Shown here piece by piece: positions 18,447-64,000 of a stretch of DNA of 64,000 nt (positions are counted from its first letter, which is position 1; each line of letters begins with the position of its first letter). Origin of the DNA: a virus (lineage: Duplodnaviria > Caudoviricetes); IMG/VR virus record IMGVR_UViG_3300035498_000877, positions 225,235 through 289,234 of that record. One strand, given 5' to 3'. The notes under the pieces were generated by a model. That model was not told the origin of the DNA, made no database searches, and worked only from the letters and a program-made list of their open reading frames with translations. Made by a program: the position numbers and the translations under genes.

Positions 18447-21400
18447 TAAAATATTCATGGATGAAGATACATACTATTTGAATGATGAAAAAATAAAAGT
18501 AATCAAGAAAGATGGTACTATACAAAACTTCAATCCCGAGAAAATAATTATTGCAGTAGATAAATCAGCAAGTAGAATGATGAAGAAATTAACTGCTGAG
18601 CAGAATAATAATCTAGTTCTAATGGTATTAAATGAGATTCAAGAAATGAATCAATCACAAATACAGATTGCTGATATGCATAAAATAATGGAAAAAGTAT
18701 TGGAGCAGTTTGATCCAGTGATTGCTAAATCATATAAAGACTATAGAAACTATAAAGTTGACTTTATTAATATGATGGATGCAAGTTATCGTAAGAGTCA
18801 ATCTATTAGATTCATTGGTGATAAGGATAATGCCAATACTGACTCAGCATTAGTAGCAACTAAACGTTGTTTGATATTCAATGATTTCAATAAACGATTA
18901 TACAGAAAATTCTTTATGACAGTAGATGAACTCCAAGCATGTAATGATGGATACATTTATGTACATGATCAATCTGCACGACTTGATACGATGAACTGTC
19001 TATCACGATCAACCAAATTTATTACGGATCAAGGAATTAAATCATTTTATGATTTTGATGATGGCGATACAGTCTGCGTAATATCTCATAAAGGAATATG
19101 GAGAAATGCAACAGTACATTCATATGGAGAACAACAGGTCCATACTGTAGTATTTGAAAGATGTGATGAAGGTTTAACTATACCAGTAGAAGTAACTCCA
19201 AATCATAGATGGATATTGCAAGATGGATCTGTAACTACAGATTTGAAAGTTGGAGATATAACATGGCCTACTCCAGAAAATCCATTTACTCCTAGTGAGG
19301 GTCATGGTTTAGGATGGAAAGTAATATGTATTACTTCTGAATCAACTAAGAATAAAGTATGGTGTCTTGATGTTGAAGAAGATCATAGTTTCTTATTAGA
19401 ATATGGAATTCCAACTGGAAATTGCTGCCTCTTTGATGCAGAAAATGTGATGAAAAATGGATTTGAAATGGGTAATATATGGTATAATGAACCTAACTAT
19501 CTTGATACTGCATTTGATGTATTGGGTGATATTATATTATCAGCAGCATCCCAACAGTATGGTGGATTTACTGTACCTGAAGTAGATAAATTATTATCAC
19601 CATATGCATCTAAATCATACTATAGATATTATGATGAGTATATAGAACAGATAAATGATTTAGTAGATGATGATACTGTTGAAGTAAAAGTTCCATATGG
19701 AAGAATATACAATAAAGCTGATGTATATGCAATGAAGAAAGTAACAAGAGAATTTGAACAAGGATTCCAAGGAATAGAAATGAAACTAAATACTGTTGGT
19801 AGTAGTAGAGGTGATTATCCATTTATAACTATGACATTTGGATTAGCCACTGATAAGTTTGGTAAGTTAGCAAGTTCTACTTTCTTAAAGGTACATATGA
19901 ATGGTCAAGGAAAACCAGGATTCAAGAAACCTGTTCTATTTCCTAAACTTGTATTCTTATATGATGAAAATTTACATGGAGAAGGAAAAGAGAATGAAGA
20001 CATTTATGAGTTAGCAATTGAATGTTCTTCTAAAACAATGTATCCTGATTGGTTATCATTGACTGGAGAAGGATATGTTCCATCTATGTATAAGAAGTAT
20101 GGAAGAGTTATATCGCCTATGGGTAAGTGCATATTAGCCCATGTAAAACATCTTCAAACCAATTGCTTGTTGGGTGTGGCTTAATAAAGCTGCTAACAGA
20201 TAGGTCTTAGGGAGAAGAGATTTGATGATCTGAGATGAAGCTGTGCCAAGCCTCTATAAAGAGGAAAGGTCAATCGACTAAACGTGATGAGTGTAGCGTT
20301 GTAGGGTTGGAGATAAGCACCAACTCCAAAAGGAGATGCCCGTTGATGGATTTGGCAAATCTGGAGGGAAGAGATAGTCAGTATATATGGTGACATATAA
20401 TAATACGTGTAGAGCATTTCTATCACCTTGGTATGAGAGAGGTGGAATGAAACCTGCTGACGATGACGATAAACCAGTATTTGTTGGTAGGTTTAATATT
20501 GGAGCAGTATCATTACATTTACCAATGATATTAGCAAAATCAAGAAAAGAGAATAAAGACTTCTATGAGGTACTAGATTATTATCTAGAGATGATTAGAG
20601 GAATACATAAACGTACATATGATTATTTGGGAGAGATGAAAGCTAGTACAAATCCTCTAGGATACTGTGAAGGTGGTTTCTATGGTGGACATCTAAATCC
20701 TCATGATAAGATTAAACCAATATTGAAACCAATGACTGCATCATTTGGTATTACAGCATTAAATGAATTACAGCAGCTATACAATGGAAAATCAATTACA
20801 GAAGATGGAGAATTTGCATTAGAAGTAATGAATTACATAAATTACAAAGTTAATAAGTTTAAAGAGGAAGATGGATATCTATATGCATTATATGGAACAC
20901 CAGCTGAATCATTATGTTTTACTGGTGATACATTAGTAAATACTGAAAATGGAACTACTAAGATATCTGAACTTAAAGAGGGAGATAAAGTATATTCATA
21001 TAATAATGAAACTAAAGAGATAGAATTAAAACCTGTTGGAGCAGCTAGAGAAACTAGAAAGGAAGCAGTTGTAATTAATTTAACTTTCCAGAATGGAACT
21101 ATAGTTGAATGTACGCCTGATCATCCTTTTGGAGCTATAAATGCATATGGTGAACTTAAATGGGTTAAAGCAGAAGACTTAAGAAGATTCCACAAAGTAA
21201 AAACCATTAATGGATTCACAAAGATACATGATATACAAAGAGTATTAAAATTGCAGACTGTATACAATATAGAAGTAGAAGATAATAATAACTACTTTGT
21301 CGGTGGTGATGATGCAATATTAGTACATAATTGTGGACTACAAATAAAACAATTCAGACAGTTATATGGTATAGTAGAAAATGTTTCTGATAGACCATAT

Positions 21401-32308: not shown

Positions 32309-35300
32309 GTGAATACAATGTCGAGAGATTCTAAACAAACAGATCCTCTTCAGAATTTATATTCCGACATAAAGAAAATTCTAAGTTTCACAGAGTTCAA
32401 AGATTTAAAGAAAGCAAATGCTAATGAAATATCATCCGAATCAGGTAATGTTGAGATGTGGATGAATTTAAAGTTGGGAAGAGATTCATATTTAACATAC
32501 ACAAAGTATTGGGATATCGCTATGTTCCAAGAAGTACTTCCAACAATTAAATGGAATAACTATCAATATTTCTTAGCTAATCCATATAATGTACCTTTAG
32601 ATTTCAGGGATAACTTATTAACTAGAGGAAGAGAAAGATTTCTTGCTGAGTATGAAGAGAAAAATAATTATTATAGAACATTATATGGATTACCTCCATA
32701 TGGTACTAATAAATCAGATTATATCTATTTATCTTCTAAAGTACGAAACCAATTACATGCATCAGAATTACCAGTTCATGAGTTATCTACTTTGATTCAG
32801 AATAATTATATTAATACTGATGAATATAAACAAGTATTAGCTGATAATCCTGATAAAGAATATCTTAAATACTTGGGTATGTATAAAATTGATCCATTTA
32901 CTGCTCGTAATGCAAAAGACTTTGATATTATTAGATATCCACTTGATCGAAATGATATAAATGAGAATCTATTAAATAGATTTGCTGCTATATATGCTGA
33001 TTGCCGTGAATATATAATGGTAGCTATTTATAATAGTCAACTTGAAGATATTTACACAGGATATAGAGATTTTATGAAGTTTCTAATACTAATGTATACT
33101 TTCCTTCAGGTTAATAATGCTGCAGTAGAATCAATTCATAATAAAAAATTCTTTGATGATTCAATATTGCATATATACTTATCAATATTTGGAATACCAG
33201 ATAATCTATCATTGACCAATGATGTGCGTAGAGACTTAGCAATCAATATGTGCAAGTTGATAAAAGAAAAAGGTACCAATGAAGTTTATTATGATTTAAT
33301 AAATTTATTAGGATATCAGGATGTTTCAGTTAGTAAGTTAATGTTAGTTAAAGGGCAACAATTTGATTCAGATAATAATTATATGGCATTATCTGAAGAT
33401 GATTCTAATTTCACATCAGTATCTGATATTGAAAATAAGAATATTAAAACTGATCCTTACTTTATTAAAGTAGACTTAACCGATGATGACCCATATAATA
33501 CTATAGTAAATTGTGATGCTCCTACATATTCATATCATGATATAGTTGATTCAGATCCTACTTGGTGGGATTTATCTGATACAAGAGAAATATTGTCAGC
33601 CAATAATTATAGTATTGCAGATTCAAAATATATTATGATAGAATCAACTATTCATCAGATGGAGTATATTACTGAAGCTATTTATTTCATGAGAATGGTA
33701 TTGGATAATAAAGAATCAACGGATGACTTTTATATGCAGTTACCAGAATTATTAGGAACATCAACTGTGTCAATATATGATGCATTAGTATTCATTTTAT
33801 GTGCAATGTGTATGAGCAATAATCTCAAAGGCACTATTATCAATGATGAAGAGAATTTATATGCAGTAGCTGGATTTAACTTTAATATGGATTATGATTC
33901 ATTTGAGGAGTATTTAAATTCTACTGAATATGTTGATAAGGAAAGAGTTATTGAATTCTTAAACAATCTTACTATGACAGATGAATCTGATATTAATAGA
34001 TTATTTAATGATGTAATAATTCCTATGAGAGAATGGTTAGAGCATAAGATAGAATCAACTACTATCAGAGAAGAGTATATTGAATATGAAAATATTTATA
34101 GAGCTTTATATACTTATGATATTAATTACAATACATTCTATGATGATTTTGAAATGCCATTGGAAATAATAGAAAAAGATAATGATATATCTGAAGAGGA
34201 TATGGAAGCATATAAATATTTCTATCCTCATAAATTAGCAGGTGGGCATGTAACTGTTGATGACTATAGTACATCTTCTTATAAGTATCCATTTCTTGAA
34301 AGAAATTATAAACCTACATGGTACATTCATATAGTAATAGAGACACCACAAGGAGAAGATGATCGTGGATATTTATATTTCTATGATGTATTGAATTGTG
34401 ATGATGTTAAATTATTAACTAATGATGATGGTACTAGAATATTTATGGACTATAATGATTCTGATGTAGGATGGGTAGTAAATCAGAAGGCAGTTAATAG
34501 AGCATTATATTTGATTGACCAATTAGATGAAACTGAATTATCTAAAGCATATTTCCAAATAGATACTCCAATACCTAATAGTGGTGGCAAACATTATGAT
34601 ATGGGAACTAAACTTCCTGCATCTATCCGCAATGGTACATATAAAAATGTACTTAAATCCAAAATTGAAATGGATATCAATGGATTATGTGATAAACCAA
34701 CTACTTATTTGGAGTATTTATATAGAAAGAATGAATCATTATATAATATTCTAATGGAAGATGATAGATTCAATACAAATAAAGACGCTTGGCTTGATGA
34801 TGTTTTGAAAGTAGTATTAGCTGTAGAAACAGAATTAGATTTACATATGAAATATTTCGAACAGTCTGTAGTAGGAACATCCTTATTCTTTAAACCATTA
34901 ATTACTTTGATTAAATACTTCAAATCAACTTTTGTTAATTTTGCAAAAACTGAATTCAACTATATTTTTGATGATAAAATGGATGCAGGTGGTAATTGTA
35001 ATATGATTAAATTATTTGATGAAGTATTATTTAAAATTCATTTTGTAACATTAGGAAATACTGGATATGAATCCCAATTAGGTTTCTATGATGCTATTCA
35101 TAAAATGACTAAACATATATTGATGAAAGATAGATCTACATTGATGAATAAATCAATAAATATATTTGAGGAATCTGGAAAACCAATACGAATGGGTTCT
35201 GTTGGATTAGTAGATGAAGTTAAATTCTATAAGAATGGAACTGAATTAGATCCCGATGGAAGTAAAGCATATTGGATTCATGGAGAAGATAATTCATATA

Positions 35301-35392
35301 CTTATTTAATGAATAATAGAGATAGTAAAGAAACTGTACAAAATGTTGATTTAGAAGGATGGAAAGACTATGTAGTATCATACAATCCATAA
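32309..35392 (+). CDS. Large virion structural protein, possibly baseplate
   Basis: 1027-aa ORF; KEKGTNEVYYDLINLLG resembles baseplate-wedge KGT motifs; lies upstream of a fibre gene. Confidence 0.45.
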   Translation: MNTMSRDSKQTDPLQNLYSDIKKILSFTEFKDLKKANANEISSESGNVEMWMNLKLGRDSYLTYTKYWDIAMFQEVLPTIKWNNYQYFLANPYNVPLDFRDNLLTRGRERFLAEYEEKNNYYRTLYGLPPYGTNKSDYIYLSSKVRNQLHASELPVHELSTLIQNNYINTDEYKQVLADNPDKEYLKYLGMYKIDPFTARNAKDFDIIRYPLDRNDINENLLNRFAAIYADCREYIMVAIYNSQLEDIYTGYRDFMKFLILMYTFLQVNNAAVESIHNKKFFDDSILHIYLSIFGIPDNLSLTNDVRRDLAINMCKLIKEKGTNEVYYDLINLLGYQDVSVSKLMLVKGQQFDSDNNYMALSEDDSNFTSVSDIENKNIKTDPYFIKVDLTDDDPYNTIVNCDAPTYSYHDIVDSDPTWWDLSDTREILSANNYSIADSKYIMIESTIHQMEYITEAIYFMRMVLDNKESTDDFYMQLPELLGTSTVSIYDALVFILCAMCMSNNLKGTIINDEENLYAVAGFNFNMDYDSFEEYLNSTEYVDKERVIEFLNNLTMTDESDINRLFNDVIIPMREWLEHKIESTTIREEYIEYENIYRALYTYDINYNTFYDDFEMPLEIIEKDNDISEEDMEAYKYFYPHKLAGGHVTVDDYSTSSYKYPFLERNYKPTWYIHIVIETPQGEDDRGYLYFYDVLNCDDVKLLTNDDGTRIFMDYNDSDVGWVVNQKAVNRALYLIDQLDETELSKAYFQIDTPIPNSGGKHYDMGTKLPASIRNGTYKNVLKSKIEMDINGLCDKPTTYLEYLYRKNESLYNILMEDDRFNTNKDAWLDDVLKVVLAVETELDLHMKYFEQSVVGTSLFFKPLITLIKYFKSTFVNFAKTEFNYIFDDKMDAGGNCNMIKLFDEVLFKIHFVTLGNTGYESQLGFYDAIHKMTKHILMKDRSTLMNKSINIFEESGKPIRMGSVGLVDEVKFYKNGTELDPDGSKAYWIHGEDNSYTYLMNNRDSKETVQNVDLEGWKDYVVSYNP

Positions 35393-35591
35393 TAAGTAGG
35401 GGGGATTAATATCCCCTCTATATTTTTATTATTTTAATAAAACGAATAAAATTTAAGAGGGTGACTGATTTACTACAAATTTTTAAGTATTAAAAATATT
35501 ATAATTACATCTATCGGAATTTGACATAATAGCCTAATATTTTTGATAAAATAACTTTATAACATTTTAAAAATAGAAGGGAGAAACTATT

Positions 35592-36898
35592 ATGAGTAAC
35601 AAAGTACTTGGGGGGGGGGTTCATTAAAATCCCTAATTAATATAATTAGAAATGGTAATGATGATAAATATGCTGATTTATTAAAATATGGCAATAAAGC
35701 TATTAGTTTAGGCAGAAAAGCTGATACTAATATTGGAGATCATTCTTCAGCTGTAGGATATAATAATGCAGCATTGGGAATATATAGTCATGCTGAAGGT
35801 GTTTATACTACTGCAAAAAATCCATATTCTCATGCTGAGGGATGCGGTACTACAGCTGGTTCAGATGATAATGATAGTGATGAGTTTAGTTATAATACAT
35901 ATGATGGTACATGTTATGATGAAGATGGATTTTCTAGACGCTCACAACATGCAGAAGGAGAATATACCATAGCATTACATGGAGCTTCTCATACTGAGGG
36001 ATGTTATACTATGGCAATAGGTTTATGTTCTCATGCTGAGGGTGCAGGATGTGAATATGAAATAGGCCCAGAATCATCCCTCAATCTATCAGGAGATTAT
36101 GCTTATAGTAAAGCTGTTGGTGATTATTCACATGTAGAAGGATTCCATAATCTAGCAGCAGATTATCAACATGTGCAAGGACATTTCAATGAATGGAAAA
36201 GTGGTGGACATCATTATGGTGTTTATGGTACTGCATTTATAATTGGTAACGGGACATATGATGGTTCAACAAAAGAAATTACAAATAGTAATGCATTCAG
36301 AGTTACTTATAAGGGAGAGACATATGCTCAAGCTGCATATTCTGCAACTGGTGCTGACTATGCTGAGTACTTTGAGTGGTTAGATGGTAATCCAGATAAT
36401 GAAGATAGACGTGGTAAGTTTGTTACAATGGATGGTAAAAAGATAACCTTTGCTAAAGAAGGAGATTGGGTATTAGGAATAGTATCTGCTAATCCATGTG
36501 TACTTGGTAATACTGATACTGAGTGGCAAGGCAAATTCATGAAAGATGAGTTTGGATCATATATAAAAGAAAAGTCAATTCAAACTATTAAATTACCTAA
36601 AAAAGTAACTGATGCAAATGGTAATGTCACTTTTGAAAAGATTGACCAAGAAGTAGAATTCTATAAAGTAAATCCTGATTATGATCCAGATAAAGAATAT
36701 GTACAACGTGATGATAGACCAGAATGGAGTGCTATTGGTATGCTAGGAGTACTTGCTGTATATGATGATGGCACATGTGAAGTAAATGGATTCTGCAAAT
36801 GTAATAATAACTCAATAGCTACTAAATCAGATACAGGTTATAGAGTAATAGAACGTGTTACAGATAACATTGTAAGAATAGTATTTAGTGTAAGATAA
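35592..36898 (+). CDS. Tail fibre/spike with SHAEG (YadA-head-like) repeats and C-terminal peptidase-G2-type chaperone; frameshifted at a G10 tract
   Basis: RBS + ATG 35592 reads MSNKVLGGGVH*; the -1 frame is open from the tract into ORF 35774-36898; seven xxH(A/T/V)(E/Q)G repeats; GADYAEYFEW...LGIVS...RPEWSAIGMLG. Confidence 0.8.
35610..35619 (+). repeat. G10 homopolymer in the fibre-gene 5' cassette
   Basis: GTACTT-G10-TTCATTAAAATCCCTAAT. Confidence 0.9.
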
Positions 36899-36909
36899 AA
36901 TAAGTATAT

Positions 36910-36940
36910 TAGAAGAGGGATTTATATCCCTCTTCTATTA
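36910..36940. terminator. Terminator between convergent genes
   Basis: TAGAAGAGGGA/TCCCTCTTCTA. Confidence 0.65.
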
Positions 36941-36944
36941 TTAA

Positions 36945-38258
36945 TTATTCGATTATCATTTCATTTATGTAATTCAAATATTTACCACGATAAATCATAT
37001 AATGATCAACCAATGTAATTAATTTTGAAACAATATCTGTAAGTTGATTAATTACATCAAGTAAAGCTCTTTCAGAAGTAATTTCAATATATTGTGGATA
37101 ATACTCAGATAATTCTTTACTATTTTTTACAGTATTCCAAAATTCATTACGTTTGTCTATTACATCTGGAGTATTCCAATTATCAGGTTTATTAGTTTTA
37201 TTAGTAATGACATCATCAAGTTTATTTTTATAATCAATTGTGTGATATCTAGCTGTTGCCCCAATTACCATATGTGATGCTTTATTATCTCTAGCAATAT
37301 TAAAATCTTTATAATATTGAGCAATATGACCAACTAAAGTACCAGATGATGGACTTCCAGACATTGAATAAATATAGCTTTGTAATAAGACATATAAATC
37401 ATTCAATAAATTACCAGCAGTAATAATATCAATATTGGTATCACCCATCTTTGGAATCATTTCAGTTTCAACAGATAATACTCCATCTAATACCATAATT
37501 AGAGAATTATATCCAATAGTCTCATTTATTGAAAGAGATTGATTGCCATATATTGCTTCAGCGATAGATGCAAATTCATCAAAATCCTCTTTATCTAATT
37601 TATGTAATGCATCTGCACTAGCAGCATGTTTTGGTTTAGACAACATAACATGATCAATCCCATAAAATTTAATATTCAAACCATCATTTGCATGCATATG
37701 AGCATCATATAATATTTTACCAGCCTTTGAATATCTTTCTTTTTTCTCTGCATTTTCTTTAGCTTTTTCTTCACCACGTTTCATCATATCATCTAATTTT
37801 TCTTCAGTTGCTTTAATATCTTTTTTATTGGCTGGCTTATGATCTTCATCTACAGGATTAGAAGCTTTATCTGATTTACTTTTATTTAGTTTATTAATAA
37901 TATTTTCAACTTCTTTTTTAACAGTTGTCTTGTCTTTATGGGTTAACTTTTTGAATATTCCGGTTACCCATCCAGTAAATTTGCTATACCATTTCTTAAC
38001 AAGTTCAACTGCTTTCCAGAATGCTTCAGAAATTTTTTTACTAACTGATTTAGCTTTATTAGTTAAATCATCAATTCCTTCAGTAAAATATAATGATTCT
38101 GTAATTGCTTCATTATCAGAATTATTAGTTCCAAATTGAAGTGATTCTAAATATATACTATACAAATTATATTGTGCTATTGCTTGTTGCATTTCGAAGT
38201 AATCTTTTGTATATTGATAATTCTCTAGGTAATTAATATCTTCAAATGTTAATTGCAT
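36945..38258 (-). CDS. Probable internal head protein
   Basis: AAAGGAG RBS before ATG 38258; acidic N-terminal segment with YLES/ITES/FTEG, then an amphipathic W/F helix. Confidence 0.5.
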   Translation of the reverse strand: MQLTFEDINYLENYQYTKDYFEMQQAIAQYNLYSIYLESLQFGTNNSDNEAITESLYFTEGIDDLTNKAKSVSKKISEAFWKAVELVKKWYSKFTGWVTGIFKKLTHKDKTTVKKEVENIINKLNKSKSDKASNPVDEDHKPANKKDIKATEEKLDDMMKRGEEKAKENAEKKERYSKAGKILYDAHMHANDGLNIKFYGIDHVMLSKPKHAASADALHKLDKEDFDEFASIAEAIYGNQSLSINETIGYNSLIMVLDGVLSVETEMIPKMGDTNIDIITAGNLLNDLYVLLQSYIYSMSGSPSSGTLVGHIAQYYKDFNIARDNKASHMVIGATARYHTIDYKNKLDDVITNKTNKPDNWNTPDVIDKRNEFWNTVKNSKELSEYYPQYIEITSERALLDVINQLTDIVSKLITLVDHYMIYRGKYLNYINEMIIE

Positions 38259-38277
38259 AGTTAAATACTCCTTTCTA

Positions 38278-40524
38278 TTAATAACAATCCCAGCTGAAAA
38301 ATACTGTACCATTGAATTTTCTATTCATTAAATTAGTTTTACTAATAAAGAAATTAGCTACTCCATTATCACCCCATGTGATACCTTTATTATCACTATC
38401 TATCTGAAGTAATAATTCAGTGTATTCACCTTTACGAGCATCCCATTGAGTAAAGAATGGATATCCACCAATTCTGTGTCCATCTGGGATACCTTTTATC
38501 CATAAACCTTCATCAATAGCTTTATCTGCAGATCTATTTTTGTGATATAATTCATGTGCTTTACATCCAAATTCTTTTTGAACTAATGGGTCTAAAATTT
38601 CATAATACTCATTACATGTCATATTTACCCATTGCTCTTGTAATGTTCCTTTGATTGGAAAGCATCCTGTAAATGCACCTATTTGACCATTATTCCAATC
38701 ATTAGTATAAGTTGTTTTTACAATATCATTTGATTGTTTCTTGTTGAGATTTGTGTGATATATGCATGTTATACCTTTGGTAGTGCCCCATCTTTCGTCA
38801 TCGGCTATGAAAAATTGTAATAGACCTGATGTTGGATAACCTTTTAATTTTGGTAATTCGGCAAAATTAATCTGAGCTATCATAGTTAAAGGAACTTTCT
38901 TTCCATTAGTATTAGTATATGTTGGCCACTTCATACCTTCAGGCCAATATGGTATACCGCCAATTTTACTTTTAATTAGATAACTTTTTATATCAATTTC
39001 TTTACTAATTTTTTCAGATGTTGATAATTTAATAGATTGCTTTTTAGATTTAGATTTTACTGTTTCAATGATTCTATCTACTTTAGCACGCTCTTCAGCA
39101 GTTAATGGTTTTTGAGGAGAAGTTGTTGCTGAATGCTGAACTTTACCACTCTTATTATTCTTATTAGCTATTGACCTACTTTTTCTAATAGAAAATAATT
39201 TAACTGGGTTATCAGCTCTACGTATTTTGTTTTTTCTACTAGTAGCTTCAGTATATTCAGTTGATTCTTTAACCTCTTTATCTTCTTCTTTGTCCTCTTC
39301 TTTATCTTCGTCCTTTTTCTCTTCTTTGGTATCTTTCTCCTCTTGCTTAATCAATGCTTGATTTATAATTTTATTCATATTAGTCTCAAGCATATCCTTA
39401 TCATTGATATAAGCATCAAGTAATGTTTCTGCTTCCTTCAGATCTTCTTCAATCTGTTTCTTAACTTCCTTAGGAATATTAGGATCTTTCAGATCTTCTT
39501 TATACTCTTTGATCAATGCTCTGAATCTATGAACATCAGTTTTATGTTCATCACTGATTAATTCCATTGTCATAGAAGTAATAAACTCTTCTCGTTCAGC
39601 TTCCAGTTTATATCTAGTCATTATCTTTTCATTATAATACTTATCTACTTTACTTAACCCTGATATTAATTCTGGACCATATCCGTACATTCTGGAAATG
39701 TTATCAGCATATGCTTCCTCAAAATCTTTTCTAGTAAAGCGTTTATCTTTCTTAATAATATCTTCTATTCGTTGTTTATTCTTTTCAGTAATTTCACCTT
39801 CTTGATGTTTCCATTTCTTTAATTTTGATTTAAACCAATATGAAAACTTTTGGAGTCCAACTTTTATAGCAATTAATGCACATAAAGCAGCAAATATAAC
39901 TCCAATGGCATATACACCTTTCTTTTCTTTAGTTGATTGATATTTCTTTTCAGCATTAGTAAGTGATCCATTTCTATCAGTAAGATATTTAGATATAATA
40001 TTTGATTCAGTATATGAAATATTTACAAGTGCTGGATCAATATTATGACCAAATTCATGAAGTATAATTGCTATCAATTCTCCTGGTGTTAATAATTTAA
40101 TAATTCCTAATGATATAGCCATCTCGAATATTAATGAATTTGATACATCTTTGAAACCTTTATCTGTTACAATACCTTCAATAGGATATCTATTATATGT
40201 ATAAGCATAAGCATTTAACTCACACGTCTCAAATGTATCACTTTTTTCACTATATTTTTCAATAAATGGATGAACTGCTACAGTTCTAAATCCAAATATA
40301 CTTTTTAATTCATCCTCAAAATCTTTCCATAATTTATTACGCCAAAATGTTTGTGGATCAAAATCTTTATTTTCTTTCTTTTGAGCTGCAATCTGTGTCT
40401 CTAATTCGCTCTTTATATCAGTCATTATTGATTGAAGTTTTTCTAATGTTTTTTTACCTTCAGCAAATACTGCTTCCTGATATATGCTGTCTATATTTTT
40501 TCCTAGTTCAAAACCATTATACAT
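38278..40524 (-). CDS. Zincin metallopeptidase-like protein fused to a DUF1963/YwqG-like domain
   Basis: ELIAIILHEFGH, EEAYAD, YGYG; C-terminal SKIGGIPYWP, GLLQFF, HRIGGYPFFTQ, LLLQIDS, WGDNG. Confidence 0.7.
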   Translation of the reverse strand: MYNGFELGKNIDSIYQEAVFAEGKKTLEKLQSIMTDIKSELETQIAAQKKENKDFDPQTFWRNKLWKDFEDELKSIFGFRTVAVHPFIEKYSEKSDTFETCELNAYAYTYNRYPIEGIVTDKGFKDVSNSLIFEMAISLGIIKLLTPGELIAIILHEFGHNIDPALVNISYTESNIISKYLTDRNGSLTNAEKKYQSTKEKKGVYAIGVIFAALCALIAIKVGLQKFSYWFKSKLKKWKHQEGEITEKNKQRIEDIIKKDKRFTRKDFEEAYADNISRMYGYGPELISGLSKVDKYYNEKIMTRYKLEAEREEFITSMTMELISDEHKTDVHRFRALIKEYKEDLKDPNIPKEVKKQIEEDLKEAETLLDAYINDKDMLETNMNKIINQALIKQEEKDTKEEKKDEDKEEDKEEDKEVKESTEYTEATSRKNKIRRADNPVKLFSIRKSRSIANKNNKSGKVQHSATTSPQKPLTAEERAKVDRIIETVKSKSKKQSIKLSTSEKISKEIDIKSYLIKSKIGGIPYWPEGMKWPTYTNTNGKKVPLTMIAQINFAELPKLKGYPTSGLLQFFIADDERWGTTKGITCIYHTNLNKKQSNDIVKTTYTNDWNNGQIGAFTGCFPIKGTLQEQWVNMTCNEYYEILDPLVQKEFGCKAHELYHKNRSADKAIDEGLWIKGIPDGHRIGGYPFFTQWDARKGEYTELLLQIDSDNKGITWGDNGVANFFISKTNLMNRKFNGTVFFSWDCY

Positions 40525-54400: not shown

Positions 54401-56255
54401 CCTGGATAATACTGGGTGCCTAAGAGCTTTAACTACCAAGTTATATTAGTGATGATATGATGGATGAAGTAACTATTCATGTATGGTAAAAAGGTTAAAG
54501 ATATATGGTCAATCCGCAGGGAAGATAATTGATTATCAACTATCACCCTCAACGACTATCCCTGTGAAGGGAGTAGATTCTAAAGCTAATGTAGAATCGA
54601 AATGAGATGTCATGATAAATTATTATGAAAGATATAGTCTAGTATCCTAGCGAATAGTTAGGGAAGTTCATAAGAGAACTGCACAGAGTTGCGACCTGTG
54701 TGAATAGTACGCTTAATGCTGACTTAACGTCTTCCCAGTCGAGGTCAGCCTAAACTCTTCTAATTGCGGGAAACTTATAATAGGATTCTATATACCAAAT
54801 TATCATGGTGACATAGATAGTGGCAAGAGGTAATATCTCAAGGTATGGTAACAAATATGGAATTATCAAGTAATCGACGCAGCGAAGTATCTAGTAATAG
54901 ATATGAGTTCAGAGACTATCGAAAACATAGTATGAATAGTGATATTCATATGAAGAAGTGAGTAGAGTAGGGCCATATAAAATATATGGTGGGGTTGGGA
55001 TCCCTTAAATCCAAACGGAGAGTTCTATGAGAGTATGAGTAGTTATCCACACTCCCATAGTGAAGATATAGTCCTTTAAATAATTATTATTCTGATTTAT
55101 TATCTTTATATTCTAATGGTGGCAACAAAGTAAATCCTGGAAAATATTCCATTTTGATTTTAGGATTTGTTTCATTGATATATAAAGATATAGTATTATA
55201 TAAACCTTTGTAAAATTCTTTAGCTTTGTCAGAATGACGATCTTGAGTACGAGCATTTTGATCATTCAATACTGCACTATTTAATATGTATGCACGCTTT
55301 TCATCATTAATATAAAATGAAAACCAGCCTTTGTATGGTTTACCTGTACGCACAGAATTCTTTATTATATCTTTTGAAGTTCCAACAAAATTACCAAATA
55401 GTTTCATTGATTCAGATAAGATTATTTGCTGTTGATTCATATTAATTGATATGATTGGTTCTGAACGAAGTCGTTTACCATTAATGGTCATTCCATATGT
55501 TCTAATTGATGGATATAATCCTTCACCTGTACTACTTAGATTATAGCCATTCTTTATTGTGTCATACTTATTAATGAAATACTCTTCAGCAGCTTTATGA
55601 TTGTATTTATTTGTTTCTGCAATTGGATACATTATAAAATTATTGAATCCTTCATTAGCCATAGCTTTTATGATAGGTCGATTTGCATGTTTACTGGTGT
55701 TTTTATTCTCCTTAATACAGTTATATTCATATAAATAATGCGACGCTCGTTTCTTAAGTGGATTTAATGGGTTAGGATTTCTAACATCTGTCCATTTGGA
55801 ATAAACCGAACCTATATATTTCTGATGGTTAGTTTTATTCTCAATACAGTAAATATATCCATATGGTGGTGAACCATTTGGGGTTTGTTCTTTAAACTTA
55901 TTGGGGATAGGTTTGTCAATAAGAAATTGTTCCATTAGTTCACGATTTTGTTTTAGTTTTTCTTCACTTGCCATATTATTACATCCTTTCTTAATTTCCA
56001 CACTTCAGGTGGGATAGATTTTTAGGTATCATATTAATAATATGTAAGTGAAAAATAAGGTTTTATTAGAATAATTAATTATCCCATGTTGACGGAGATG
56101 TACTTAATAATTTAGCATTAACAATGGAAGAATTTTGGGAGATGTTTGATGGATTTTCCCCTACTAACATGTTGATAGATAGAACTAATTCATCTATCAA
56201 ATATGATTGTTCTGCATTGGAAAATGTTACGTTAGCAATCTTATCAGATAATTAA
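51433..56255 (+). CDS. RNA polymerase beta-prime N-terminal subunit (non-virion type); exons 51433-52296, 53613-53852, 54248-54346, 54712-54724, 56089-56255 (460 aa)
   Basis: Zn finger CDCG..CPHC; spliced motifs GGEFNYSS|RAVIV, LNRNP|TI, LPG|LNADF|DGDVLN; the exons total 1383 nt in frame. Confidence 0.92.
52297..53612 (+). mobile_element. Group I intron 1 of beta-prime, with HNH ORF
   Basis: Exon ends in U; IGS GCCCG (one mismatch); core elements present; terminal G before CGT GCA GTT. Confidence 0.87.
52507..53394 (+). CDS. NUMOD4-HNH homing endonuclease
   Basis: YEVNNVGEVRN, VHRLVAIAFIPNP, VNHKN, NLEWAT..EN..H; the 3' end runs through the P7 element (STTIE). Confidence 0.9.
   Translation: MKDKLTKKLLKDQEKELNKRSMELFGKCYAELMIAEITKLDQYMKDLANPQWKRVIIDNIVTSYEVNNVGEVRNINTGHIKEHQINQDGYNRISMWYNNKQRKFQNVHRLVAIAFIPNPENKPQVNHKNVNKQCNWVGNLEWATASENQIHAYIHDLHIPKTGTEYWNCKHTEEQVHQVCKLLERSIPINKIANKLNVTEAFVIGIKYGNWGYIRAQYDIPPSNTYGDRTQEQVDIINNLIRNGCRNRKYILSQAGLPDTKTNISYVKYRIKIYNEIAKGSTTIECSDAGRNTTS
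53853..54247 (+). mobile_element. Group I intron 2 of beta-prime (395 nt)
   Basis: ATCCT pairs with GGGAT; AATTGCGGGAA, TTCAACGACTA, GATATAGTC; ends GATAATG. Confidence 0.9.
54347..54711 (+). mobile_element. Group I intron 3 of beta-prime (365 nt)
   Basis: GGGT pairs with GCCC; ATGCGGGAAA, CAATCCGCAG, TCAACGACTA, AAGATATAGTC; ends TAGTACG. Confidence 0.9.
54725..56088 (+). mobile_element. Group I intron 4 of beta-prime with antisense GIY-YIG ORF
   Basis: GCTGACT pairs with GGTCAGC; GTCGA pairs with 3' exon TTGAC (P10); TTCAGAGACTA, AAGATATAGTCC; ends CCCATG. Confidence 0.88.
55087..55974 (-). CDS. GIY-YIG homing endonuclease (antisense within intron)
   Basis: GYIYCIEN...YIGS, R, E, GYN; AAAGGA RBS before ATG 55974. 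Confidence 0.85.
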   Translation of the reverse strand: MASEEKLKQNRELMEQFLIDKPIPNKFKEQTPNGSPPYGYIYCIENKTNHQKYIGSVYSKWTDVRNPNPLNPLKKRASHYLYEYNCIKENKNTSKHANRPIIKAMANEGFNNFIMYPIAETNKYNHKAAEEYFINKYDTIKNGYNLSSTGEGLYPSIRTYGMTINGKRLRSEPIISINMNQQQIILSESMKLFGNFVGTSKDIIKNSVRTGKPYKGWFSFYINDEKRAYILNSAVLNDQNARTQDRHSDKAKEFYKGLYNTISLYINETNPKIKMEYFPGFTLLPPLEYKDNKSE

Positions 56256-56261
56256 TAATAT

Positions 56262-56294
56262 AAGAGAGGGATACTAATCCCTCTCTTTATTTTT
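56262..56294 (+). terminator. Intrinsic terminator after beta-prime exon 5
   Basis: AAGAGAGGGA/TCCCTCTCTT plus T tract; supports the reconstructed gene end. Confidence 0.7.
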
Positions 56295-56363
56295 TACCAA
56301 TAAATAAAGCTCTATTAGTTATTAAATAACACAAAATAAATACTAGAAAGGAGATATACTATT

Positions 56364-57655
56364 ATGAGCAAGAAGTACTTGGGGGGGGGGGTTCATTAAA
56401 ATCCCTAATACAAACTATATTAACAACATTTCCAACAAGTGAAATTACTGAAGATGAAATAAATGATATGTACTATCCTAAATATGGATTTAGTATAGAT
56501 CAAACACAATCTGATCCTAATAATGTAATATCATATATAGGATTAAATAAAGACTATACACCAGTACATATGGATTATGATAATGATGTATTTGATTATG
56601 GTGATTGGGGCAATGCATTCTTTATTAAGAATCTTAGACCATGTATGTTAAATTATAATGGTACTGAAGCATACTTATTAGATCCTAATGATTATACTAA
56701 GAAACTAGACGGTACTGATTCAGATGCTACTAATTCTGACTTTGCTGGTAATGTGATGGTAGGAATACCTAAAGTATATTTTAAGATAGTACCTATAGAT
56801 GATGACCATTGTAATTTCTATTTTTCTGAAACTAAAAGAGATGGATATCATTGTTGGGCACATATTAACAATTATGGTGATGAGGTACCTTATATGTATA
56901 TGCCAGCATATGATGGTAGTAATGTAGATAGTGTATTACGTAGTATTAGCGGATTAGACGCTATTTGGAAAGCTGAAAACATACAAATTATAGCTGATTA
57001 TGCATATGCTAATAATCAAGATGATGATAATATATGGTCTATGAATACATATAGTGATTGGTTATTAATAGTATTATTATCACTATTAATATCTAAAACT
57101 ACAGATAGCAAAACAGCATTTGGCAAGGGTAATTATTCTGCCAGATCTACTCAGAATTATGGTATGATTAAATCAGGTACTATGGATCAAAAAGGATTAT
57201 TCTGGGGTAGTACTGATAATACAATTGGTGTTAAAATATTTGGTATTGAAAACTTCTGGGGAAATATTAATAGATTAATGTATGGATTAATAAATTATTA
57301 TGGTACTCAGAAAGTAAAACTTACATATGGTACACAAGATGGTAGTACAGTAGAAGGATATAACTTTACAGGTGATGGATATATAGAAGCTGGTTCTACA
57401 CTTCGAGGTTCAAATCGCTTATACTATTTATCCAAAATGACATTTACTGAAAATGGTATATTCATTAAAGACATATCAGGAACTGCAGGTACTACATATG
57501 GTAATACAATACCCTATTATGATCATAGTAAATTGGAGATAGCTTGTATTGGAAACAATACAGGATACACGTTATTATTGGGTATATATTTCATTACAAA
57601 TTCATCGTCATATGCAGGTGGTTCTCCCAAATGCCTACCAAAATTAGTAAGTTAA
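56364..57655 (+). CDS. Fibre/receptor-binding-like protein (GIENFWGN, probable C-type-lectin-like fold); frameshifted at a G11 tract
   Basis: AAAGGAG + ATG 56364 reads MSKKYLGGGVH*; the -1 frame is open into ORF 56468-57655. Confidence 0.7.
56381..56391 (+). repeat. G11 homopolymer in the fibre-gene 5' cassette
   Basis: GTACTT-G11-TTCATTAAAATCCCTAAT. Confidence 0.9.
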
Positions 57656-57796
57656 ATTATTTTATTTATATAAATATTTGAAATATGTTTTAATAGTAGT
57701 GGGAAATATTTCCCACTACTATCAAATTTTATTTCCATTATTCAGTTATATATTATTATCGTATACATAGAACAAAAATCTAGGAGGTATAAAAAT

Positions 57797-62667: not shown

Positions 62668-62700
62668 ATAGAAGAGGGAAATTAATCCCTCTTCTATTAT
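62667..62700. terminator. Terminator between convergent genes
   Basis: AATAGAAGAGGGA/TCCCTCTTCTATT. Confidence 0.65.
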
Positions 62701-64000
62701 TAACTAACTTTAGGTAAACATTTAATGCATGCATTTTCACTATTATCAGATCCATCAGCAGTAAAACAAAAATACATAAATAATGGCCCGGCAGATTTAA
62801 TATGTATCGTATCGCCACCAAAAGAAGCAACAGCTGAATAAGTACCATTTGAGCTTTTCCATGAAGTTGTAGTATAATACATTGAATTATCTATTTCTTC
62901 GCCAGATTCATCGACATCTTTAATAAATATACCATTCTCAGTAAATCTTAAAGATTTGATAAGTCCTCCTGTACTCTGGGTTTGACCAACTTCTATATAT
63001 CCATCACCAGTAAAGTTATATCCTTCTACTGTAGAACCATCTTGGGTACCATAAGTAAGTTTCACTTTTAAAACATTGGAACAATCAATCAATCCATATA
63101 TAAATCTGAATGCATTGCCCCAGAAATTTTCAATACCAAATATTTTAACACCGGATACTTTATCTGTAGATCCCCAGAATAATCCTTTCTGATCCATAGT
63201 ACCTGAATTAATATAACCTTGCTTATTTACATTTACGTATGAATCAGTATTGCCTTGACCGAATGCTGTTCTGTGATCAGTAGTTTTAGATATTAACCAT
63301 AATAATAGAGTTATTAATAGCCAATCATTATAACATGTAATAGACCAAATGTTATCATCATTTTGATTATTTGCATACGCATATTCAGCAAATTTACTTA
63401 TAGAAGTTTTTTTCGTTGTTGGTTCCATTCCACTCATTGATCTTAATATATTACTAGATTCAACTCCATCATATGCTGATAAATAGCAATATGGTACTTC
63501 ATCTCCATAGTTATTTATATGAGCCCAACAATGATAGTTATCATCTACTTTCTTATCTGAAAAATAAAAATTACAATGATCATCATCAATAGGTGTTATC
63601 TTGAAATATACTCTTGGTATTCCTACCATAACATTGCCAACACCATTAAGACTATCAATAGCTGTACCATCTAATTTCTTTTTATAATTATTATGGTCTA
63701 ATAAATATTCTTCTGTGCCATTAAAATTCAATACACATGGTCTAAGATTCTTGATAAAGAATGCATTTTCCCAGTCACCATAATCAAATATGTCATTATC
63801 ATAATCCATATGTACTGGTGTATAGTTTTCATTAACAGTACCTTCTATATATGATATCATACTATTAGGATCAGATTGTGTTTGATCTATACTAAAACCA
63901 AATACTTCTGCTTCGAATTCATGTCCACATTTTTCACATGTAGTTCCTGGATCTGATGGGCTACATTCTTCTGTTGTACCACATCCACCTTCTGTAATAC
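62700..64000 (-). CDS. Fibre/receptor-binding-like protein, paralog of 56364 (5' end outside window)
   Basis: Frame is open to the window edge (ITEGGCGTTEECSPSDPGTTCEKCGHEFEAEVFGFSIDQTQ...); extensive identity to 56468-57655. Confidence 0.8.
   Translation of the reverse strand, partial: ITEGGCGTTEECSPSDPGTTCEKCGHEFEAEVFGFSIDQTQSDPNSMISYIEGTVNENYTPVHMDYDNDIFDYGDWENAFFIKNLRPCVLNFNGTEEYLLDHNNYKKKLDGTAIDSLNGVGNVMVGIPRVYFKITPIDDDHCNFYFSDKKVDDNYHCWAHINNYGDEVPYCYLSAYDGVESSNILRSMSGMEPTTKKTSISKFAEYAYANNQNDDNIWSITCYNDWLLITLLLWLISKTTDHRTAFGQGNTDSYVNVNKQGYINSGTMDQKGLFWGSTDKVSGVKIFGIENFWGNAFRFIYGLIDCSNVLKVKLTYGTQDGSTVEGYNFTGDGYIEVGQTQSTGGLIKSLRFTENGIFIKDVDESGEEIDNSMYYTTTSWKSSNGTYSAVASFGGDTIHIKSAGPLFMYFCFTADGSDNSENACIKCLPKVS

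Follow-up and report, generated by a model that had tools for sequence, protein, structure and literature searches.

The stretch of DNA that we analyzed (the window; 64 kb) comprises bases 225235 to 289234, the final 64 kb, of a single 289,234-bp IMG/VR virus record from a jumbo phage. The genome has a GC content of 29.8%, is classed as linear by IMG/VR, and has a CheckV completeness of 100%. Genes in the window include those for an RNA polymerase beta-type subunit, a DNA polymerase, and a virion structural protein, and the phage has its own multisubunit RNA polymerase. A minus-strand gene at window positions 62700 to 64000 runs past the window end and resumes at C1:1-854 of the genome, and its 726-aa full-length version (P0249) occurs on a 17.5-kb contig that bridges the junction. 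Thus, the genome is circular or circularly permuted and essentially complete.

Two genes in the window begin with a long run of G, and all features of these two copies given here are on the plus strand, in window coordinates. Copy 1 lies downstream of an ORF (32309 to 35392) that matches phrog_20751, a virion structural protein. As a terminator-like hairpin (35396 to 35421) marks the 3' end of this virion-protein gene, copy 1 is a separate transcription unit. It is preceded by a 5' module (35474 to 35591; here termed type B) with a putative promoter and the SD GGGAG, which has ~95% identity to the module before the poly-G gene at genome position 95591. In the G10 assembly, the start codon at 35592 opens an out-of-frame reading of 11 codons, MSNKVLGGGVH*, which ends in TAA (35592 to 35627). 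As counted, 18 nt lie between the start of the ATG and the G10 tract (35610 to 35619). The leader is longer by one A than in the other four copies described below, and therefore the in-frame tract lengths are G8 or G11 rather than G9 or G12. The 18 nt after the tract (35620 to 35637), identical in four of the five copies, encode SLKSLI of a shared N-terminal peptide. The long ORF (P0001; 425 aa; 35621 to 36898), in the -1 frame relative to the start codon, encodes a fiber or spike protein and is followed by another terminator-like hairpin (36910 to 36937). P0001 combines YadA-like SHAEG head repeats with a Peptidase_G2 self-cleaving chaperone domain (C-terminal intramolecular chaperone domain PF11962, E value of 2.9e-40), and its PDB matches include phi29 gp12 (3gqh and 3suc) and Dpo31. 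Judging from these matches, it is a spike like the phi29 gp12 pre-neck appendage, and self-cleavage is predicted.

Copy 2 likewise lies between terminator-like hairpins (56262 to 56287 and 57693 to 57722), and the upstream hairpin is the same as that found before other modules of its kind. Its 5' module (56288 to 56363; type A) carries a putative promoter and the SD AGGAG. In the G11 assembly, the start codon at 56364 opens the 11-codon out-of-frame reading MSKKYLGGGVH* (56364 to 56399), in which 17 nt lead to the tract (56381 to 56391; in-frame lengths G9 or G12) and the following 18 nt are the same as those in copy 1. The ORF downstream (P0002; 420 aa; 56393 to 57655) is of receptor-binding type and matches phrog_5302 (tail protein). 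Two paralogues, P0003 and P0005, match the same family; the N-terminal ~270 residues are conserved among the three, and the C-terminal parts have diverged. An AlphaFold2 model of P0002 (pLDDT of 86, pTM of 0.88) has the DGR variable protein TaqVP as its best PDB match (5vf4; E value of 4.5e-8), with weaker matches to TvpA and Mtd. As modeled, P0002 folds like a DGR variable protein (C-type lectin/FGE-like). A minus-strand gene for a GIY-YIG-type homing endonuclease (55087 to 56001; phrog_314 and phrog_5123) lies just upstream of copy 2 and might drive the mobility of genes in this region.

In both copies the SD is strong, and the arrangement of RBS, G run, 11 codons, and stop is exactly that of the original prediction. 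The frame relations hold as well: both long ORFs are in the -1 frame, so that gain of one G or loss of two fuses either of them to its start codon. Profile and family matches place the two downstream proteins in different families, which agrees with the earlier claim that they are unrelated.

Runs of at least seven G occur only five times in the whole genome (G9, G9, G9, G10, and G11), with one C7 run besides, and none of the five is a G7 or G8. A first-order Markov model of the whole genome leads us to expect 0.05 runs of G9 to G11, where five are observed. Within the window, runs of at least eight G are found only at the two poly-G copies (0.07 expected from 100 shuffles). GGG makes up 4.3% of Gly codons in long ORFs. 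The earlier statements that these are the only long G runs of the window and that Gly is mostly encoded by other codons are both borne out. Apart from the five tracts, homopolymers of seven or more nucleotides are strongly depleted genome-wide under the same model. There are 17 runs of A7 (54 expected), no A runs of eight or longer (~26 expected), and two such T runs (~19 expected), and even G4 to G6 runs fall below expectation. This depletion suggests general selection against slippage in the genome. Avoidance of runs globally, together with enrichment locally, is the usual signature of contingency loci.

The genome-wide tract search proposed with the original prediction thus extends the set from two loci to five. 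All five tracts are on the plus strand, at codons 7 to 10 of stand-alone tail or fiber genes, after ATGAG.AA...GTACTT and a strong SD. In genome coordinates, the tracts are G9 at 21379 (start codon at 21359; in frame), G9 at 95608 (start codon at 95591; out of frame), G9 at 107792 (start codon at 107775; in frame), G10 at 260844 (window copy 1; start at window position 35592; out of frame), and G11 at 281615 (window copy 2; start at window position 56364; out of frame). As assembled, two tracts are in frame and three, including both window copies, are out of frame, and each of the three is one G away from an in-frame length. Every one of the five genes is monocistronic, with terminator-like hairpins on either side.

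The five genes share one start module, although they belong to three unrelated protein families and carry two upstream (promoter) types. The genes at 21359 and 107775 and window copy 2 have type A, and the other two (window copy 1 and the gene at 95591) have type B; within each type, ~100 nt are nearly identical. Type-A upstream sequence is also found before a tract-less paralogue at 99353(-) and a mini-gene at 109315(-). The product of the gene at 95591 (P0004) has Cys-rich repeats and a Listeria-Bacteroides repeat. These observations support the portable N-terminal module that had been proposed from the two window copies.

The N-terminal peptide common to these fibers is MS.KKYLGGGSLKSLI. 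Tract-less paralogues have the same peptide, with G-E-N or G-T-N where the tract-bearing copies have G-G-G. Thus, the gene at 99353(-), with type-A upstream sequence, begins MSKKYAGENSIKTLID; the tract-less DGR target of this phage (P0008) begins MSNNKYIGTNSIRDLV; and in a related phage, a tract-less homologue with 71% identity (L016) begins MDNDKYLGSKLIDDL. These starts show that the peptide is the true conserved N terminus of the fibers, in which the three GGG codons stand for ordinary codons. Because tract-less relatives carry the same peptide, translation begins upstream of the tract. The opposite case, translation only from downstream of the tract, had been named as fatal to the original prediction, and it is ruled out by these relatives and by internal starts that have no SD. 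Gene callers nonetheless place three of the five poly-G genes at internal starts without an RBS, and those picked in the window (35774 and 56468) lack an SD. The five poly-G genes are all on the plus strand and the tract-less sharers of the N-terminal peptide (99353, the DGR target, and the mini-gene) are all on the minus strand, a split with too few independent events for a conclusion.

The tract and its flanks are common to both upstream types and to nonhomologous genes. Therefore, we infer that the module (promoter, RBS, anchor peptide, and tract) was copied onto unrelated fiber genes by recombination. The shared peptide probably docks the fibers to the tail. An 8-nt palindrome, AAGTACTT, lies directly 5' of all five tracts and is conserved as DNA even in copy 1 (compare window positions 35602 to 35637 and 56373 to 56409), which keeps the nucleotide string AAGTACTT-Gn but reads it in another frame. 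The CCC just 3' of the tract gives rare codons (TCC makes up 2.4% of Ser codons). At the sequence level, the palindrome and the CCC together point to either nucleotide-level constraint or very recent copying.

Exact and gapped pattern scans for the cassette across IMG/VR and JGI metagenome contigs returned unrelated matches or nothing, the sole JGI contig with a pattern match (L012) being a chance match inside an OTU-like gene. The N-terminal cassette is present in none of 115 outside homologues of P0003 among the matches listed. When 20 kb were compared with 50,697 phage records by megablast, there was no match, and a search for related loci that started from the neighboring virion protein was likewise without a result. 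Among outside homologues, those in phages of Butyrivibrio, Faecalibacterium, and Clostridioides and in Lachnospiraceae/Clostridiales MAGs are the nearest; the best outside homologue (P0012) is carried on a 229-kb contig. Given these homologues, the host is probably a member of the Clostridia.

Other contigs of the same phage, obtained by exact-protein look-ups in JGI metagenome samples, match the genome except for tract lengths and a small number of single-base changes. For copy 1, the genome and L015 (3300035499) have G10, and L021 (3300035495) has G9; over 5006 bp, L021 differs from the genome by no mismatches and a single gap, which is at the tract. The tract at 21379 is G9 and in frame (ON) in the genome and in L011 (3300035495) and is G10 and out of frame (OFF) in L022 (3300035497), again with no mismatches and one gap, over 6598 bp. 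The remaining tracts have the same lengths in the genome and in a second assembly: G11 for copy 2 (L010), G9 at 95608 (L013), and G9 at 107792 (L014). Cluster matches for the gene at 95608 are fragments without tract information. The tract is thus the sole difference over 5 to 6.6 kb, including G10 versus G9 in copy 1, and this variation supports slipped-strand change as originally envisaged. Alternation between ON and OFF among assemblies is seen only for the gene at 21379 (G9 ON, G10 OFF). A fixed in-frame tract without variation was the outcome that the original prediction set against itself. Variation among assemblies is indeed seen; an in-frame allele of either window copy was not found in the assemblies compared, in which copy 1 is G9 or G10 and copy 2 is G11 twice.

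All of these lengths were taken from metagenome assembly consensus, and 1-nt differences in G9 to G11 runs of short-read assemblies could be partly technical. However, random consensus error is not what one would expect to give identical lengths, some of them out of frame, in separate assemblies. The JGI samples compared are probably from one study and contain essentially one phage strain, so these are few independent observations.

The out-of-frame genes seem to be maintained by selection. They retain open frames of 420 to 560 codons, where ~8% of random codons would be stops. Pairwise dN/dS values of copy 2 against five paralogues are 0.35 to 0.49, in the same range as those for in-frame copies, and the values for copy 1 are 0.26 against a related-phage homologue and 0.42 against a constitutive paralogue. 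As judged from these ratios, which cover the two window copies among the three OFF genes, the OFF genes are under purifying selection and are kept functional.

We consider it probable that the five tracts are poly-G contingency loci that confer slipped-strand phase variation on receptor-binding or fiber genes. During replication of the phage DNA, a G9 to G11 run would gain or lose a G by slipped-strand mispairing. One-third of the lengths would fuse the start codon to the long ORF (ON), and the other two-thirds would end translation after 11 to 15 codons (OFF). The OFF state would come without polar cost, as each gene has terminators on both sides. The particles of a burst would then carry differing subsets of up to five alternative fibers, and such mixed sets could serve as a bet-hedge against variation of host receptors. 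The tail, fiber, and lectin-fold nature of the products suggests that what the switch would control is the display of adhesins on the virion, as the original prediction held. The rate and reversibility of switching, incorporation into virions, and an effect on host range are, likewise, expectations of the model.

The alternative that fares best is programmed decoding, in which out-of-frame tracts would be read by slippage of the phage RNA polymerase or by ribosomal frameshifting, so that tract length sets a level of expression rather than an all-or-none state. The recurrence of out-of-frame lengths in independent assemblies (copy 2 G11 twice and 95608 G9 twice) is in its favor, as are the multisubunit RNA polymerase encoded by the phage and the selected appearance of the OFF genes. 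The end of the tract can also pair with a downstream AATCCC to form a small hairpin. However, we reject this hairpin as a frameshift stimulator, as folds of the tract with the downstream 60 to 90 nt are no better than shuffled controls (z of -0.9 to +0.4). Moreover, the shifts needed at the five loci differ (0, 0, +1, -1, and -1), the G9 allele of copy 1 needs +1, and tract length itself varies. With nonuniform shifts and no stimulatory structure, a fixed ribosomal frameshift signal is unlikely, and that part of the programmed-slippage option raised in the original prediction is disfavored. Well-documented slippage by bacterial RNA polymerase involves A/T runs. Slippage by the phage RNA polymerase could nevertheless add leaky expression, and programmed decoding might act along with slippage at the DNA level. 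Overall, we regard programmed decoding as an unlikely explanation.

It seems less likely still that the true tracts are fixed and in frame and that the OFF states are artifacts of homopolymer sequencing or assembly. The differences are, admittedly, single nucleotides in G9 to G11 runs of metagenome assemblies. Against this, the recurring lengths (out-of-frame ones included) come from assemblies of different samples, and all other positions over 4 to 6.6 kb agree, which indicates high consensus quality. Sequencing error would also fail to explain why five runs of at least nine G share one codon position when long runs are otherwise purged from the genome.

We give the least credence to permanent inactivation of redundant paralogues at a mutation-prone site: both known alleles of copy 1 are out of frame, the extra A in its leader shifts the ON length, and a truncated mini-gene carries the same module (genome positions 109204 to 109315), but the long frames remain open, dN/dS in the two copies is no higher than in the in-frame paralogues, the tracts stay uninterrupted at highly mutable lengths, and each OFF copy is one G from an ON length. 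A 95-bp perfect inverted repeat that flanks the gene at 107775 was rejected as an invertible switch, as both of its arms carry the same promoter and start and inversion would leave expression unchanged.

The proposed phase variation of the five fiber genes by slipped-strand mispairing has close precedents. Poly-G and poly-C contingency loci are known in Campylobacter jejuni, Haemophilus, and Neisseria, in which a homopolymer near the 5' end of the coding sequence toggles the frame by polymerase slippage. The phage loci resemble these in that the tract is overrepresented against a genome that otherwise avoids long runs. Stochastic change of host recognition is also achieved by invertible tail-fiber segments (the G segment of Mu and the C segment of P1) and by DGR tropism switching (Mtd of Bordetella phage BPP-1). 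There is a likeness to the latter, in that the copy 2 product has a DGR variable-protein fold and the DGR of the phage acts on its paralogue. In contrast to inversion and DGRs, however, the poly-G switch needs neither a recombinase nor a reverse transcriptase, and it alters which fibers are made rather than their sequence. The overlap of a short upstream frame with a long downstream frame at a slippery run recalls the programmed -1 frameshifting of lambda G/GT. Here, the frame relations are not uniform, two of the copies need no shift, the tract is variable in length, and folding gave no sign of a stimulatory RNA structure.

To our knowledge, poly-G phase variation of receptor-binding proteins has been experimentally shown only in Campylobacter phages. 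In Fletchervirus phages, genes for receptor-binding proteins contain tracts of G7 to G11 (Sorensen 2021, Cell Rep 35:109214, cited through PMC10579305, PMC10877375, and bioRxiv 10.1101/2025.10.21.683753). In bioRxiv 10.1101/2025.10.21.683753 and PMC10579305, these tracts are described as producing subpopulations that infect hosts without the phase-variable receptor. Our phage resembles the fletcherviruses in that several long G runs are located inside receptor-binding genes of a lytic-type phage, where changes in length would yield ON and OFF subpopulations that may differ in host recognition. It differs in being a 289-kb jumbo phage with Clostridia-phage-like fiber genes and no P0002 sequence relation: tblastn of P0002 against the 50,697 phage records matched no Campylobacter phage and only phages of Butyrivibrio, Faecalibacterium, Clostridioides, Bacillus, and Psychrobacillus. 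It also differs in that the tract sits at one codon position of one shared module on nonhomologous genes at five dispersed loci, and in having a DGR in the same genome. The contingency loci reported for T2 and T4 consist of short repeats and are spread over many classes of genes, and repeats of at least 6 bases were found to be underrepresented in coliphage tail-fiber genes (bioRxiv 10.1101/2025.10.21.683753). The present phage, in contrast, has long tracts in fiber genes only. Given this scarcity of repeats in coliphage fiber genes, fiber-specific long tracts constitute a distinct pattern.

The mechanism, then, is already known from Fletchervirus; what is new is one shared start module that gates five fiber genes of three families, beside a DGR. 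The present case would extend the phenomenon to an uncultured jumbo phage with Clostridia-phage-like fiber genes, in a form more organized than that of the Campylobacter phages. If slipped-strand switching operates as proposed, stochastic fiber switching would be a general phage strategy and not a peculiarity of Campylobacter phages. It would also follow that gene callers systematically truncate such genes, and that one consensus genome leads to host-range predictions too narrow for the phage population as a whole.

The DGR lies outside the window, on the minus strand (C1:66474-68120; L024). It comprises a reverse transcriptase gene at 66474 to 66992 (PF00078, E value of 2e-18) and two adjoining GC-rich, TR/VR-like islands (67380 to 67445 and 67992 to 68120). 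Its target, P0008, is a paralogue of the copy 2 product and has the same N-terminal peptide. The variable region of P0008 showed no variation, with one identical sequence on 5 contigs. P0002 was rejected as a current DGR target, as the 3' end of its gene is rich in AT and mismatches the TR-like sequence over the majority of its length.

In the mini-gene (C1:109204-109315, minus strand; L003:1880-2180), the type-A start module makes up a sixth copy, with only G5. Here, the module is fused directly to a stretch of ~100 nt with 65% GC that shows homology to the DGR TR/VR and closes with the C-terminal motif of the family (GGSPKCLPKSVS*), and no single frame is open throughout. The first 95 bp of the mini-gene and the start of the gene at 107775 together constitute a perfect inverted repeat. 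The mini-gene looks like a relic of deletion or recombination that unites a poly-G tract with a DGR variable region. Two contigs are clean 5'/3' chimeras of paralogues. In L013 (3300035495), the start and the Cys-rich part of the gene at 95591 continue into the lectin-fold gene at the contig end, and in L023 (3300043077) an exact match to the gene at 107775 switches to an exact match to the gene at 21359 at about nt 340. Either domains are truly shuffled within the population, or the assembler jumped between repeats that the genes share.

A further reading, which we hold tentatively and with somewhat more doubt than conviction, is that the promoter, RBS, 15-residue docking peptide, and poly-G tract constitute a start cassette, both anchor and switch, that moves by recombination between unrelated receptor-binding genes. 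The phage would then possess at least five fibers that are switched independently and stochastically (up to 32 combinations), and, as part of the same tentative reading, the DGR would diversify a sixth fiber, with a seventh being constitutive. Such shuffling would have left its traces in the chimeras and in the truncated cassette that is joined to DGR-like sequence.

Apart from the tracts, a minus-strand gene next to copy 1 (window positions 36945 to 38312) carries six SNPs within 145 bp (37401 to 37545). Nothing else distinguishes L015 from the genome over 4.66 kb, and the six SNPs fall at the end of the L015 contig.
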